Below, in pieces: positions 18,812 to 24,183 of a DNA stretch of 32,000 nt. The stretch is from an uncultured archaeon (GTDB lineage Archaea > Asgardarchaeota > Thorarchaeia > Thorarchaeales > Thorarchaeaceae), in contig CAZYLT010000003.1 in assembly GCA_964648855.1 (NCBI GenBank), positions 150,001-182,000 of the forward strand, given 5' to 3'. Each line of letters starts with the position of its first letter. The stretch's first letter is position 1. Both the position numbers and the translations under genes were made by a program. A model generated the notes under the pieces. The model was not told the DNA's origin. It did not search any database and was given only the letters and a program-made list of their open reading frames with translations.

Positions 18812-19309
18812 TTAGACTCGGCTCTTCATTACTTCAATGTCTTCCTTGAGTGCTTCAAGGTCTTCTTCATGCTCAATCTCGTCAGTCATGATTTCCCGAG
18901 CCATTTCCCAAGTTACTGGGTCTTTTCCTTCGGTCATCTTCATGATTTTGACGTAAACGTCAATAGCACATCTCTCTGCCTCAATGTTCTGGTCCAATAT
19001 CACCGGCACTGCGGGATCATCGGGTGTTGCGTATTCGCAGTTATTCATTTTGTGCCATTCTTCTGGATTGAGGATTGGTGTCCCCCCCAGAGTAATGATT
19101 CTCTCAGCGAGCATATCCGCATGACGGAGTTCATCAGTTGCGTGTTCAATCAGTTCTGCTTCAACAGCGCCACGCATTGGCCCTACAAGAACCTTTGAGC
19201 CGACCCAGTATTGGTAGTACGCCAGCCATTCATCTGCTAATGCTTTATTGAGTTGCTTCAGTAAGCTATCTACATCTAAATCTACAATTTCTTTCGCTCT
19301 TTTTCCCAT
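18812..19309 (-). CDS. dps: Ferritin-like DPS-like (DPSL/bacterioferritin-related) protein
   Basis: ALADEWLAYYQYW, DELRHA, RI..LGG, AERCAI..Y, DEIEHE di-iron motifs; Cys pair (NNCEY, ERCAI). Confidence 0.92.
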   Translation of the reverse strand: MGKRAKEIVDLDVDSLLKQLNKALADEWLAYYQYWVGSKVLVGPMRGAVEAELIEHATDELRHADMLAERIITLGGTPILNPEEWHKMNNCEYATPDDPAVPVILDQNIEAERCAIDVYVKIMKMTEGKDPVTWEMAREIMTDEIEHEEDLEALKEDIEVMKSRV

Positions 19310-19346
19310 TGCTCTTCACCTAAATATCTAAGACGTTCTCGATAAT

Positions 19347-19370
19347 AACTCAATTTGTAAAATATGAGTT
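19347..19370. promoter_or_regulatory. Inverted repeat (candidate operator) upstream of the Dps-like gene
   Basis: AACTCA-N12-TGAGTT between the TATA box (19412-19420) and the start codon (19309). Confidence 0.4.
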
Positions 19371-19411
19371 TTAGTCTACAGCCTTATTCACTCCATCAAG
19401 CTCATCAATCC

Positions 19412-19420
19412 TTTATATAA
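19412..19420. promoter_or_regulatory. TATA box readable in both directions
   Basis: TTTATATAA on +, TTATATAAA on -. Confidence 0.6.
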
Positions 19421-19440
19421 CCTCGCAAATGCCAGATTGA

Positions 19441-19712
19441 GGCTGCTTAGTGCGCCAAAAGAAGAATTGGGGCACTCATATGCTGAAAAACGATTTGTGG
19501 TTGGTTCCCTCTACTTGAACACTCGGAAAGAGCAAGCATGAGTGCCCCGTGGGTCTGTTGAAAACAACAGAACCCAGCTCTTGGTTAGTACTTTCGTCCC
19601 ATCTCTCTCATATTTCCGAGTATGAAATCTATCACAGAAGCGTAACTTCACTCTTCTTGTGTTTCCTTGTACACATAGGAGGGAGGGGGAAAATTCAATG
19701 GCCCTCCTCTAT
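19441..19712 (+). ncRNA. Candidate structured non-coding RNA of unknown family
   Basis: Several long complementary segments (see findings), G-U pairs favouring the + strand, TATA about 25 nt upstream, no convincing ORF. Ends are approximate. Confidence 0.5.
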
Positions 19713-19732
19713 TGTCCTGTTGGACCTATCAG

Positions 19733-20686
19733 CTATAGTCTGCTGTGGCGGATTAAGCCGGAACAAGCGTAATTTTTCAGTCCTTCCTTTTCCAGCTCAT
19801 CTAGTATCAAGTTCATACCAATCGAGTCAGAGCTATGATGCCCAGCTATGACCACATAGATGCCCTCCTTTTCGCATTCTTTCTTCAGTTTCTTTGACAA
19901 ATGCATTGATATGATTGTGCTTACTCCAGCTCTTGCAAGCTTTTGGATGGCATCTGGTCCCGGTGATGTACCGCCTGTGAAGAAAACGAACTTCTCTCCT
20001 ACACTGCCCGAGGAACTGCCAACAAGGATTTCAGGTCCTGCGCCAACTCTCTGCGCTCCCTGATATTCAGGTATCTCAAGCAGAGTGTCAACAAGATCTC
20101 CTAAAGTGTAGGGTTCCTTTTCCTCAAGATACTCTCTCAGAAATTGATATCCTATCGAATCCGCAGGGGTATGGGCGCACATGAAAGGAATATCTAGCAA
20201 CCTTGCAGAGTCTATCGTTTGGGTGTGATTCCTGGCCTTAGTTGCAAAATGAACCTCTTTTAGTCGGGAAGCCATCGCTGATTCCGCTTGAGCGATTGGA
20301 ACACCAATCTTTGCCCAATGTTCAGGCTGCAGCTTCATCACAAAATCAAGATTTGAACTACCGATGCCATGCGGATGATGGGCAAGGACCAAGTCGATAG
20401 TTTCTCCCTTCTGCTTGAGCCGATCTGCCAACAGAATCTCTCCCGGCGTGATATCGATGCCGGCGAGGATTCCATTTGCCTCCCTATCTTCGTCGCCATT
20501 AAGCAATCTGCAATCCGTGTAGGGGTTCCAGGCGGCGTCCTTATCAGCCAAATCTGCCTTTATCCCATCCAGACTGTCCAATTCTTCTTTTGACTTCTCA
20601 AGAACTCTTTCTACCTTGTCTTTGCCTCGGGGATCAGCGTCAATCCCCATTTGCACGATTCGTCTGTAAATTTCGCCGATCTTCAT
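19733..20686 (-). CDS. NIF3-like dinuclear metal-binding protein (NGG1p-interacting factor family)
   Basis: GID, LAHHPHG, CAHTPAD, SMH and IAGHHSSDSIGMN metal-ligand motifs. Confidence 0.88.
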   Translation of the reverse strand: MKIGEIYRRIVQMGIDADPRGKDKVERVLEKSKEELDSLDGIKADLADKDAAWNPYTDCRLLNGDEDREANGILAGIDITPGEILLADRLKQKGETIDLVLAHHPHGIGSSNLDFVMKLQPEHWAKIGVPIAQAESAMASRLKEVHFATKARNHTQTIDSARLLDIPFMCAHTPADSIGYQFLREYLEEKEPYTLGDLVDTLLEIPEYQGAQRVGAGPEILVGSSSGSVGEKFVFFTGGTSPGPDAIQKLARAGVSTIISMHLSKKLKKECEKEGIYVVIAGHHSSDSIGMNLILDELEKEGLKNYACSGLIRHSRL

Positions 20687-20795
20687 GAATTGGACGATAC
20701 CCTACTCTAGAATGAAGCTTTCGTTCTCGGCTTCTCAAGACTTATCAACAGGATTGCCGATTGCTGTAGTCAATAGATTGGAAGTGTTTCTCTCA

Positions 20796-21647
20796 ATGAC
20801 AGATGATGAACGTAAAGTCGGACCTACATACCGAATCCTCTCTCAAGACCTTCATGCAACTGACCTGCATGGAGAAGAGATTGGAATACGGCAGCATGAA
20901 CTGTGGAGGTCGAAAAGTCGACAGTTCTCCTCAGATGCAGAAATAATTGGTCAAATCAAAGAAACTGAGCGCGACAATCCGGAAGAGAATCTCCCAAAAA
21001 AGGAGGAGACTGGGTTCATTATCCGTCGAGAATCTCTGTGGTCAAAGCTCGATGACGAGCTTGAGCGAAGGCTGGTTGCCAAACTCTTCACGAATAGCGG
21101 TAGTTGGTTTGCCACTATTGAAGAAATGGTTGCTGAGGAATTGGCGAACAGCTATGCATCAGATGAACCTCTTATGTCATTCTGTGTCATTACGGATGAC
21201 AATGAGTACCTGACACATATCAGACAGATGAAGCGGGGCAGAATCGCAACAGAGAATTTCGGATTCTTCATTCTAGGACCTGATAACTCATTTCAAGTCT
21301 TCAGAATTGAGGGGATTCGTGCCTCTGCAGGCGATGATTACAGAGTTATCAGTCTGTCAGAGAACCAAGAAGTGGCAAGAATTGATTCCAGGTTTGGGGA
21401 TGTGGGAGGCGAATTCGAGGTTCTGGTCAAAGACCCAATCCTGGCGAATAACAGGTGGTTTTGTCGGGTTCTTCAATGCTTCTCTGTAGTGATAAAGCAT
21501 AGAATGGATATCAAGTCAAAGATAGATGAGATTCTGAAATCTTGGAGAGATGGAGAAAGAGTAATCCAACAACATAGATTTGAAGTGAGTCTGCTTGGAA
21601 ATCCGAGAAAACTAACACTCAGCAGAGAAGAGTTCGAAGAAATCTAA
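20796..21647 (+). CDS. Hypothetical protein, possible Tubby-C/LURP1/scramblase-like fold
   Basis: Likely start ATG 20796, since the track start 20685 overlaps the divergent gene. Pattern FRIEG.....DDYRVI......VARID......GEFEV.V.D followed by a hydrophobic helix. Confidence 0.65.
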   Translation: MTDDERKVGPTYRILSQDLHATDLHGEEIGIRQHELWRSKSRQFSSDAEIIGQIKETERDNPEENLPKKEETGFIIRRESLWSKLDDELERRLVAKLFTNSGSWFATIEEMVAEELANSYASDEPLMSFCVITDDNEYLTHIRQMKRGRIATENFGFFILGPDNSFQVFRIEGIRASAGDDYRVISLSENQEVARIDSRFGDVGGEFEVLVKDPILANNRWFCRVLQCFSVVIKHRMDIKSKIDEILKSWRDGERVIQQHRFEVSLLGNPRKLTLSREEFEEI

Positions 21648-21807: not shown

Positions 21808-24183
21808 ATGCTCGCAAGTTGGAGGAGATTTGCCCTAACAATACTAGTAATTTATGTAATCCTAGCTGGACCTGCGTTCATGCTAGTCAACGCTCAATAT
21901 GTTTCTCAAGTTGAAGAAGTCTATAGACAAGACATTCCAACCACTGAAAATGGTCATGCCTACCTATTCGCAGAAGGCCCGGGTCAATTTGTCGATGATC
22001 CTCAATTCTTGATTCACGATGAGGATATAGATTATAATGGCTTCAGTTATCAAAAAAATAGCTGGACTTTTACAACTGGCTCGCGTGAGGGTCCTGCAAC
22101 TCGTTGGTTCAATTTTGTAAGCGATAACACAGCATCATGGGGTTGGCTTAACGACGGAGCATACCTTCCACGATTCTGGGAGTTTGTGAATACCACCAAT
22201 GAGTTATCTCTGGAGGCTGAAGAAGTCATACATAGATTTCCACTCGCCATTGGCGGAGATACCAGTTTAGCAATGAAATCAGGTCACAGTTACTATGGCA
22301 CATTCAATGTCACAACTGAGGAATTCTTCCATCTAACGCTAGTGCCGTTACAGGATGGTGTGGAGATGTTCTATCATATCGTTGACAGTCAAGGAAGGTC
22401 GCTTGCTGAGGACTCGTTTAGTAACGGCAATGTTGTAGTCGTCCCATTTCTGCCTTCGGGAGAAGGAATGCATACCTTGATTCTATTTGCTGATGCAACT
22501 ACCTCTGGCCCAGTTGCCATAGACATGAATCTGGAAGCAGTGACTCCTCAGGTAATCGAATATGGACAGTTGTACCGAGATACAATGCCAGGTAGTGAAT
22601 GGGTCGTTGATGAGGACGGGAGTATCATCCAGGATGAAAAGGTGCCGTATGCTAAGACCTACAAATTTTCGTCTAATCTGACTCACCCAGGACGAATACA
22701 ATACGCATTCAATTATCCAGAGATTTTTCCACCACATGATACTTATGATCCATACGTTGTGTTGACATCAGAGTTGTTTGAACCTGGCACTCTAGGTACA
22801 AGGGATTCTTACGAATCGTCGCTTGGAGGATTGACCTATTACTACCTGTCCACGGCCAATGAGTCATACTATGCAACTTTCATAGGCATGGATAATGTCG
22901 ACTACTATGTCACCAATGAAATGCCTCTTGTTCCTAGTCTCCCTGTCAACCAAAAGTTTTACGTTGAGAACAAGTTGGCAGGAGATGAGAAACGTGCATA
23001 TATTCTGAACCTAGGCCAGGACTCAATTCTACGGATGAACCATTCCTCAGAGGTTAATGGTGGATATGATTGGGATATTAGGACTGCAGACAACAACATG
23101 CGCCGCCTAGATAGGTCTGTATCTTCAAATAGCGTATTTGAGGACGCTTCAATATACTATCTCCCTGCAGGAACATACCTTGTAGAAGGCGACGCAAATG
23201 GTAATGATGCAAGTGGATTCTATCAATTCAATCTAGGTCCAGTAATTGAGGGGGCTGGTGCAGTCGCCATTGATGCGAGCTCACTTACAGGAGTCAGAGT
23301 TGCAACAAATCCTCTTACATTCTACAGAATGAATTTGACTCTGATTGAGCAGAACAATGTTACTGTTGAGGCGGATATCTATATATTCAATCAATATGGC
23401 GGTACTGTCTTTACAGCTAATACAGAACTTGGAAACAGGCAAGATGGCGTATCATGGCATGCTTATGGACAAAACAGAAGCTCCTATGAGCTTGGTTTGG
23501 ATACATCAAGCTACTCCATGTTCTGCAATGGATCAGCTATCATTGCTATATCACCATATGAGGTTTTGAACAATACAGCTGGACCTGCCGGCAACGAGTA
23601 TCATGAATATACCGTGGACTATGACCTAACCTTTGAAGAATTTGGGGCTGGCATAGTCAATGCAACCAATGTGGCTAATCTTGGCAGCTCAGCAATCTGG
23701 AGCAACTTCACTCTCGGAGACCCGGGCGATGCTTCTGAGCTATATGTTGTCCGGCTATCTGCCCCGAAAGGAGTTTGGATGAACTTCTCAGTCTATGCAG
23801 AAGACGTAACATCTTGGACCACCTATGCCTACCAAGATATTGATGGTTGTCCACAGCGTCTGAGCTGGTCCTATTTGGATGATACGTTTGTAGGGTCAAC
23901 TGCCAGCGAGGCATCTTTCCAGATGGGTAGCATAAGTGATGATATCCTCATTGCCTTCAAGGTCCAACGTGACCTTGCTGATGAAGGCAGTTTGGATATT
24001 CAGATATCCCCATTTGAGACCACCAACTTTGAACATCCACCACCCGTCAAATACCACGGTGGAGCTGGAGCAGCAGTGCCTATTGGCGGAGATTGGCTCT
24101 TGATTGGCGCGGGTGTTGCGGTTGTGGCAGTAGTCGTTGTTGTAGCAGTCTACTACTTCAAAAAGCGTGGACGAACAATGTAG
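21808..24183 (+). CDS. Secreted, C-terminally membrane-anchored beta-rich surface glycoprotein
   Basis: Signal peptide (RRFALTILVIYVILAG), beta-sandwich/PPC-like segments (YLPAGTYLV), many N-X-S/T sequons, C-terminal TM + KKRGR; SD GGAGAGGTG. Confidence 0.85.
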   Translation: MLASWRRFALTILVIYVILAGPAFMLVNAQYVSQVEEVYRQDIPTTENGHAYLFAEGPGQFVDDPQFLIHDEDIDYNGFSYQKNSWTFTTGSREGPATRWFNFVSDNTASWGWLNDGAYLPRFWEFVNTTNELSLEAEEVIHRFPLAIGGDTSLAMKSGHSYYGTFNVTTEEFFHLTLVPLQDGVEMFYHIVDSQGRSLAEDSFSNGNVVVVPFLPSGEGMHTLILFADATTSGPVAIDMNLEAVTPQVIEYGQLYRDTMPGSEWVVDEDGSIIQDEKVPYAKTYKFSSNLTHPGRIQYAFNYPEIFPPHDTYDPYVVLTSELFEPGTLGTRDSYESSLGGLTYYYLSTANESYYATFIGMDNVDYYVTNEMPLVPSLPVNQKFYVENKLAGDEKRAYILNLGQDSILRMNHSSEVNGGYDWDIRTADNNMRRLDRSVSSNSVFEDASIYYLPAGTYLVEGDANGNDASGFYQFNLGPVIEGAGAVAIDASSLTGVRVATNPLTFYRMNLTLIEQNNVTVEADIYIFNQYGGTVFTANTELGNRQDGVSWHAYGQNRSSYELGLDTSSYSMFCNGSAIIAISPYEVLNNTAGPAGNEYHEYTVDYDLTFEEFGAGIVNATNVANLGSSAIWSNFTLGDPGDASELYVVRLSAPKGVWMNFSVYAEDVTSWTTYAYQDIDGCPQRLSWSYLDDTFVGSTASEASFQMGSISDDILIAFKVQRDLADEGSLDIQISPFETTNFEHPPPVKYHGGAGAAVPIGGDWLLIGAGVAVVAVVVVVAVYYFKKRGRTM

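Follow-up and report, generated by a model that had tools for sequence, protein, structure and literature searches.

The element described here lies in a 423-nt intergenic gap (19310-19732) of the window, the 32,000-nt stretch of DNA that was analysed, on contig C3 of a Thorarchaeota (Asgard) MAG (G000; assembly 3.1 Mb, rated 94.6% complete). The gap separates a Dps-like (ferritin) gene at 18812-19309 (Pfam Ferritin, E 3e-29) from a NIF3-like gene at 19733-20686 that has a weak NIF3 match. Both genes are on the minus strand, so the gap comprises the downstream side of the NIF3-like gene together with the promoter and leader of Dps. A hypothetical RNA read from the plus strand would be transcribed divergently from Dps and converge on the NIF3-like gene. 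The NIF3-like protein belongs to a well-conserved family that is poorly covered by the Pfam model; the DUF34_NIF3 match is weak (28 bits, C-terminal 70 residues), and the identity is 72-78% across Thorarchaeota and 37-49% to proteins of many bacterial candidate phyla. Beside the locus, two ORFs on the plus strand, 20685-21647 (320 aa) and 21808-24183 (791 aa), match nothing in Pfam at E 0.001. Many Thorarchaeota keep the 320-aa protein beside the NIF3-like gene, with 50-62% identity.

Dps and its ~420-nt upstream region are placed between the NIF3-like and PNPOx-like genes in this genus only (compared with loci L013, L016, L035 and L045), while in several other genera those two genes are adjacent, convergent neighbours. 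The gap after the NIF3-like gene in other genera varies between an overlap (27 nt at most) and 435 nt, and no tail similar to the element is found there. Dps is itself patchy in the family, with a match in 17 of 86 genomes. As the insertion of Dps and the upstream region are seen only here, the element either arose as an innovation in the genus or came with Dps.

Lookups through the flanking proteins, covering ~15 billion proteins and contig collections, found two further lineages, MAG TEKIR_14 (G001) and one JGI contig (L148), and in those collections the genus is sampled by three lineages. The comparison set is these two sequences and the window; a Logan contig is identical to G001 within the region. 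The core of the element (taken as 19441-19660) has 84.2-89.6% identity among the three homologues, with 179 of 221 columns invariant. For comparison, G000 and G001 agree at 52-72% of third codon positions in the neighbouring genes and at 56-75% of positions in five other spacers of this 13.5-kb syntenic block; the core is conserved equally with the surrounding coding DNA (74-88%). The core is therefore under purifying selection, since its identity exceeds that of third codon positions and of the other spacers. At 84% for the same genome pair, it is well below RNase P RNA (94%) and SRP RNA (98%).

The element is non-coding, in agreement with the original prediction that the gap holds no credible ORF: none is conserved between 19310 and 19732 in the three homologues. 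Indels of 1 nt near 19487 and 19601 shift every candidate frame between homologues, and one common open stretch of ~30 codons has no common start codon and has 7 residues replaced between the window and G001. A small protein gene was rejected as the frames differ among the three homologues, and a decayed gene as translated searches against related loci and the genome were empty. The element is also single-copy. It occurs once in the 3.1-Mb assembly and partial copies longer than 15 nt are absent, which disposes of a MITE or other dispersed repeat, an origin that the original prediction had named among its refutations. Outside the genus it was not found in a DNA search of 60 relatives or by nhmmer on 47 syntenic Thorarchaeota loci and 17 Dps upstream regions, 15 of the latter belonging to other Dps homologues. 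A covariance model run over 86 family genomes finds one copy per genome, confined to the genus, with the 84 others lacking it.

The promoter region contains a quasi-palindromic TATA box, TTTATATAA (19423-19431), that can be read on either strand and is invariant in the three homologues. Directly upstream of it in the Dps direction is the motif TTTGCGAGG (19432-19441, minus strand), a BRE or regulator site, and a similar motif is present in other genera. In other Thorarchaeota genera the TATA box of Dps homologues is ~105-120 nt ahead of the start codon, and in g1, g9 (L089) and g12 (L084-L086) it comes after TTTGCGAGG or TTTGCTAGA. Because motif and TATA box recur across genera, and AT-rich patches closer to Dps are not conserved in the alignment within the genus, the box at 19423-19431 is, as judged from this comparison, that of the Dps promoter, in minus orientation. 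The upstream TATA box on which the original prediction had relied is present, but it is assigned to Dps. This removes the main argument for an independent gene, while initiation on the plus strand could still occur. On the plus side the context, CAATCC followed by TTTATATA, is similar to that of two tRNA promoters in this genome, tRNA-Tyr and tRNA-Cys, in which the TATA box begins ~34-36 nt ahead of the mature 5′ end. The organism has a poorly defined BRE; among its own tRNA promoters there are analogues for either orientation. The predicted starts are at ~19400 on the minus strand and ~19452 (G19452) on the plus strand, 52 nt apart.

On the minus strand, the predicted Dps 5′ leader (19310-19400, ~90 nt) contains a hairpin (19347-19370) and a Shine-Dalgarno-like AGGTGA, and the position of the TATA box is kept across genera. 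In the alignment with G001 and L148 the arms of this hairpin are kept and the loop is altered. Inverted repeats are found in the long Dps leaders, being AACTCA..TGAGTT here, CAGAGATGA..TCATCTCTG in g12 and GAATCATGATTC palindromes in g5 and g2 (loci L084-L098). The inverted repeat appears to be a conserved operator, or a leader hairpin, that serves to regulate Dps.

The element extends over ~19452-19665. It had been described as a structured non-coding region with long-range crossing helices, and on re-examination the coordinates and pairings check out. The outermost helix, P0, pairs 19456-19465 with 19652-19661 on either strand (10 nt at 90% complementarity, 7 bp perfect), beginning 4-7 nt after the predicted plus start. 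Its 3′ arm is pyrimidine-rich on the plus strand, and its partner (19456-19466) reads TTCTTCTTTT on the minus strand. P0 has one two-sided change and one break, in L148. The longest stem in 500 dinucleotide shuffles averages 7.2 bp, so that this pairing, proposed as closing the domain, is present but at chance level.

The two principal helices are P1 and P3. P1 is an 11-bp perfect inverted repeat formed by GGGGCACTCAT (19469-19479) and ATGAGTGCCCC (19538-19548); arms of 16 and 14 nt had been claimed, and the helix is best read as these continuous 11 bp. It is invariant across the three sequences except for the terminal pair in G001. From within the P1 loop the 5′ arm of P3 (19519-19529) pairs with 19613-19623, forming a perfect 9 bp (19521-19529 with 19613-19621) that is extended to 11 bp with one mismatch or wobble. 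The arms are 58 and 83 bp apart for P1 and P3 respectively and are interleaved, and thus the helices cross as originally proposed. Each is rarer than expected by chance: in 500 dinucleotide-preserving shuffles of 19441-19665, the longest stem reached at least 11 bp at a frequency of 0.004, and a second stem reached at least 9 bp at a frequency of 0.002. Between the 3′ arms of P1 and P3 is the hairpin P2 (19550-19576), which is solid; it has 11 bp with one bulge and a 7-bp core, and its loop is AAAA on the plus strand and UUUU on the minus strand. P2 is followed by a nearly invariant linker (19577-19612) that is unpaired in the P0/P1/P2/P3 model. It contains invariant runs at 19578-19594 and 19600-19609, and 19580-19609 has 97% identity to G001.

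The remaining pairings are less secure. P4 (19494-19508 with 19624-19638, plus strand) makes the 13 of 15 pairs claimed for it in the window, three of them G-U on the plus strand, and pairs far less well on minus; however, it falls to 12 of 15 in both relatives and gains no further support. With 82% of its cells paired across the three sequences and no two-sided change, P4 is no better than chance and its existence is doubtful. An alternative hairpin, P1alt, which the original prediction had not described, was predicted by alifold from a two-sequence alignment of the plus strand, where AGTGCGCCAA (19449-19458) pairs with TTGGGGCACT (19467-19476) and excludes P1. Relative to Dps, its position is 18-45 bp upstream of the TATA box. 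A purine/pyrimidine hairpin (19677-19708) does follow closely on the NIF3 stop codon, able to form on either strand and with 7 bp in the window, but it is poorly conserved; 81% of its cells are paired in the three sequences, and the identity to G001 falls to 0.63-0.77.

The folding z-score on both strands, a check that the original prediction had proposed, is about -3 on each (single-sequence folding energy, z -3.1 on plus and -3.0 on minus). When the consensus fold of the three sequences is compared with column shuffles, z is -4.6 (plus) and -4.9 (minus) for the whole core, and -7.1 (plus) and -5.8 (minus) for P1 and P2 alone. In the helical model as first drawn, 90.9% of cells are paired in the three sequences. 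There are three two-sided changes, comprising C-G to U-A at 19524/19618 in P3, U-A to G-C in P2 (G001), and G-C to A-U in P0. The covariation check gave a result that is not significant for the three sequences, with 32 of 500 shuffles reaching three two-sided changes; the support of the helices by covariation is suggestive, which is the most that three sequences can give.

Every helix is an inverted repeat, equally able to form on the minus strand, and cases distinguishing G-U from A-C are split about evenly between the strands. The minus strand is favoured by the terminal pair of P1 and a P2b pair in G001, and by one P3 pair in the window. The plus strand is favoured by a P2b pair in L148, by P2a and P3 in G001, and by P4. 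In P1alt the pair 19456/19469 on the plus strand is C-G in the window, U.G in L148 and U-A in G001, a path that is workable on the plus strand alone. However, a start at 19452-19457, as predicted, would leave most of the 5′ arm of P1alt outside the RNA, and this undercuts the best argument for the plus strand. The core has no run of T4 or longer on the plus strand and three runs of A4 or longer; three T4-T5 runs on the minus strand are kept in all three sequences. The pattern suits a plus transcript, or three conserved U-tracts ending the NIF3-like mRNA. Downstream of stop codons in this genome, T-tracts show no enrichment relative to A-tract controls, so the asymmetry is a weak clue to the strand either way. 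On the plus strand there is no clear T-tract terminator before 19771.

The modelled RNA is 63% unpaired, and its unpaired bases are 31% U and 27% A. The unpaired positions of RNase P and SRP RNA in the same genome are 39-44% A. Such an unpaired fraction without adenine enrichment argues against a compact ribozyme or RNP scaffold, two of the roles originally suggested. No complementarity above chance to trans targets was found in the genome, and no duplex with the Dps leader is favoured. A match of 15 identical nt to NIF3 codons 32-36 was discarded as a target because it is not conserved. The conserved blocks are not over-represented in the genome as a recurrent DNA motif or regulon, and one look-alike of the promoter motif elsewhere is inside a coding region.

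The element matches no known RNA family, as the original prediction had stated from the absence of recognisable signatures. No match was found in Rfam 15 for the whole window at the gathering threshold; relaxing the limit to E 10 added just one chance match, to a miRNA (18.9 bits against a cut-off of 90), and nothing inside the element was matched in the two homologous loci. A tRNA, including an intron-bearing one, was rejected: ARAGORN found none in 19000-20000, no tRNA model matched at E up to 10, and neither a T-loop nor a D-arm could be placed around the P1 stem by inspection. RNase P RNA and SRP RNA, each of which normally exists as one essential copy in a genome, were set aside, the genome having its own at C6:41563-41894 (155 bits) and C2:49700-50010 (108 bits) respectively, both above the cut-off. 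The layout resembles 5S rRNA in being three-way, with a closing helix and two arms, and the element contains short motifs that we take to be reminiscent of loops C and E. Unlike 5S rRNA it has no match to RF00001, and a canonical copy is present at C4:140180-140299 (65 bits). Local alignment of the element with this 5S rRNA is not significant, the score being reached by 0.86 and 0.27 of shuffles.

C/D box sRNAs have a C box (RUGAUGA) near the 5′ end, a D box (CUGA) near the 3′ end and a K-turn. Neither strand of the element has a C box; the sole TGATGA (19412-19407, minus) is in the Dps promoter region and has no matching D box. In H/ACA sRNAs a hairpin with a pseudouridylation pocket has an ACA box immediately 3′ of its lower stem. 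Here P1 is followed by GUGGGU (plus) or AAUUCU (minus) and P2 by GCUCUU, with no positioned ACA or ANA box. The order of strands on plus (A, B, A′, hairpin, B′) is that of P1, P2, P1′, P4 and P2′ in the nested double pseudoknot of HDV-like ribozymes. Unlike these, P1 has 11 bp rather than 6-7, there is no catalytic-C context and no Rfam match at E 10, and the 8 nt between the inner strand and P1′ (19530-19537) leave no room for P3/L3, on which grounds the class was rejected. A scan for intrinsic-terminator-like sites, defined as a short GC-rich hairpin with a 3-8 nt loop and then a T-run, found none on either strand in 19250-19850; the loop of P1 is 58 nt. In the genome as a whole ARAGORN finds just 17 tRNA genes, and many others may have non-canonical introns or be unassembled.

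The element is probably a small lineage-specific RNA or regulatory element. We tentatively read it as a divergent non-coding RNA of the plus strand, made from a bidirectional Dps promoter. The near-palindromic TATA box would also fire away from Dps, and the divergent transcript would start near G19452, ~52 nt from the predicted Dps start. P0 would bring the ends of the RNA domain together; within the RNA would be P1, of 11 bp and very stable, the P2 hairpin and the long-range P3 that crosses P1. P1 and P3 could form an H-type pseudoknot, or this could be one of two states, of which the other uses P1alt. Having its promoter in common with Dps, the RNA would be switched on together with it, plausibly under oxidative or iron stress. 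It would run against the NIF3-like gene and, being antiparallel, would be complementary to any 3′ tail of that mRNA. The surface for contact with a partner would most likely be the unpaired stretch 19577-19612. Transcription itself, the strand, the ends, the co-regulation and any target are putative properties of the element.

A precedent for such a promoter is provided by Pyrococcus furiosus, where one TATA box gives rise to sense and upstream antisense starts ~50 nt apart at head-to-tail genes, both in vitro and in vivo (PMC6640164). The locus is alike in having the layout of a bidirectional promoter, with head-to-tail neighbours and a single near-symmetric TATA box, and by this analogy the box may fire in both directions. 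The spacing of the predicted starts is ~52 nt here and 49-50 nt in Pyrococcus (PMC6640164). Here, however, the starts are predicted from sequence, and a second BRE is not evident. The upstream transcripts of Pyrococcus are held to be mostly non-functional by-products (PMC6640164), whereas here the 200 nt downstream are conserved and structured. We counted in favour of the plus-strand RNA the conservation, the lack of a conserved ORF, P1 and P3 above chance, the fold z-scores, the two-sided changes, the P1alt path, the tRNA-like promoter context, the proximity of P0 to the start, the Pyrococcus precedent, and the absence of T4+ runs on plus. Counted against it were that Dps alone accounts for the TATA box, the strand symmetry of the helices, the non-significant covariation, the lack of a plus T-tract terminator before 19771, the 63% unpaired fraction without A enrichment, and an identity below those of RNase P and SRP RNA. 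It is unlikely that the element is a self-contained plus-strand RNA of ~205 nt, divergently co-transcribed with Dps, that contains a true P1/P3 pseudoknot or a P1alt/P1 switch and acts as a stress-linked regulator or small ribozyme-like domain of an undescribed family. If it were, few lineage-specific structured RNAs of Asgard archaea would have been defined before it.

The same helices could be read on the minus strand, and it is possible, if somewhat doubtful, that the element is a long structured 3′ tail and terminator or insulator of the NIF3-like mRNA, or an sRNA processed from that tail. The NIF3-like gene is on this strand with its stop at 19733, and after the stop the first conserved T4+ run is the loop of P2 (19564-19561), so that the NIF3-like transcript very likely enters the element. 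Fold and consensus-fold z-scores are equally good on minus, the terminal P1 pair in G001 and one pair each in P2b and P3 are wobbles on minus and mismatches on plus, and termination in archaea is reported to depend on U-tracts (PMC8716108). The conserved runs of T4-T5 could then serve as ends of the transcript. That the last of them, UUCUUCUUUU (19466-19457), located after the P1 hairpin and just upstream of the Dps promoter, would shield the latter from read-through is a similarly doubtful proposal. The element resembles long structured archaeal 3′ UTRs and aCPSF1-assisted U-tract terminators (PMC8716108, PMC7515710) in directly following a stop codon and having conserved T4-T5 runs on the coding strand; it differs from them in being ~270 nt long and conserved in sequence, and in that use of T-tracts is not evident genome-wide. 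Since T-tracts show no excess over A-tract controls after stop codons, termination at U-tracts is not an established rule in this genome, and the simple terminator scan found none here. A terminator or insulator would also leave the 97% conservation of the T-poor 19580-19609 unexplained, other genera have no comparable tail on the NIF3-like gene, and P4 and P1alt favour plus. The mutually exclusive P1alt and P1 and, on minus, a stable stem followed by a U-rich run are reminiscent of bacterial two-state leaders (riboswitches or attenuators). Unlike those, the element has no downstream gene on plus and no match to a ligand-domain family, and on minus the Dps promoter follows the 'terminator', placing the element outside the Dps leader.

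It is quite unlikely that no stable RNA is made and that the inverted repeats act in DNA, as transcription factor sites or structural DNA controlling the Dps promoter. The element does abut that promoter, with P1alt 18-45 bp upstream of the TATA box, and it co-occurs with Dps in this genus only. Strand-symmetric helices and balanced strand tests are as expected if the pairing is not read as RNA, and double changes that keep symmetry arise in palindromic operators too. Yet 220 bp are conserved, far above the need of known archaeal operators or activator sites, interleaved arms 58 and 83 bp apart are an unusual layout for binding sites, and occurrences of the conserved blocks elsewhere in the genome do not exceed expectation. 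Moreover, in other genera Dps has this promoter motif but lacks such an upstream region. A decaying remnant without function, be it a pseudogene fragment, a scar of the Dps insertion, or a 5S-like or mobile-element relic, would suit an element that has no homologue elsewhere and that lies where only this genus has Dps between NIF3-like and PNPOx-like genes that are adjacent in several others. This is disfavoured and very improbable; the identity is far above that of neutral sites and other spacers, the element is single-copy, and it has neither translated similarity to related loci or the genome nor significant similarity to the genome's own 5S rRNA. The divergent plus-strand RNA remains our tentative reading.

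The interpretation first placed on this DNA is therefore partly supported. The RNA had been assigned to an unrecognised class. It is absent from Rfam, but it is known from one genus and three sequences; its restriction to one genus makes the class at most a lineage-specific orphan. We found no paper on the non-coding RNA repertoire of Asgard archaea, nor any instance of regulation at the RNA level for Dps or other oxidative-stress or iron genes. A conserved, structured element that shares the promoter region of Dps is a concrete, testable candidate, and would provide a natural test of whether archaeal bidirectional promoters yield functional RNAs rather than noise. Its reach is limited by its restriction to a single, rarely sampled genus with three known sequences.

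Two minor observations concern the sequences of the element. Within the linker on the minus strand is a five-codon mini-ORF (19596-19578; ATG GGA CGA AAG TAC TAA, encoding MGRKY) preceded by GAGAGAG. It is intact in the three homologues (MGRKY, MGQKY and MRRKY) and echoes the start of Dps (ATG GGA AAA AGA), a likeness that is probably coincidental. In addition, a pattern scan of metagenomes for the arms of P1 gave 47 matches, all in unrelated bacterial repeats. In these, the arms GGGCACTCAT/ATGAGTGCCC flank 45-75 nt in human-gut, lake and soil bacteria (loci L101-L147), sometimes twice per contig. They resemble REP-type or other bacterial intergenic repeats and have no relation to the element of Thorarchaeota.
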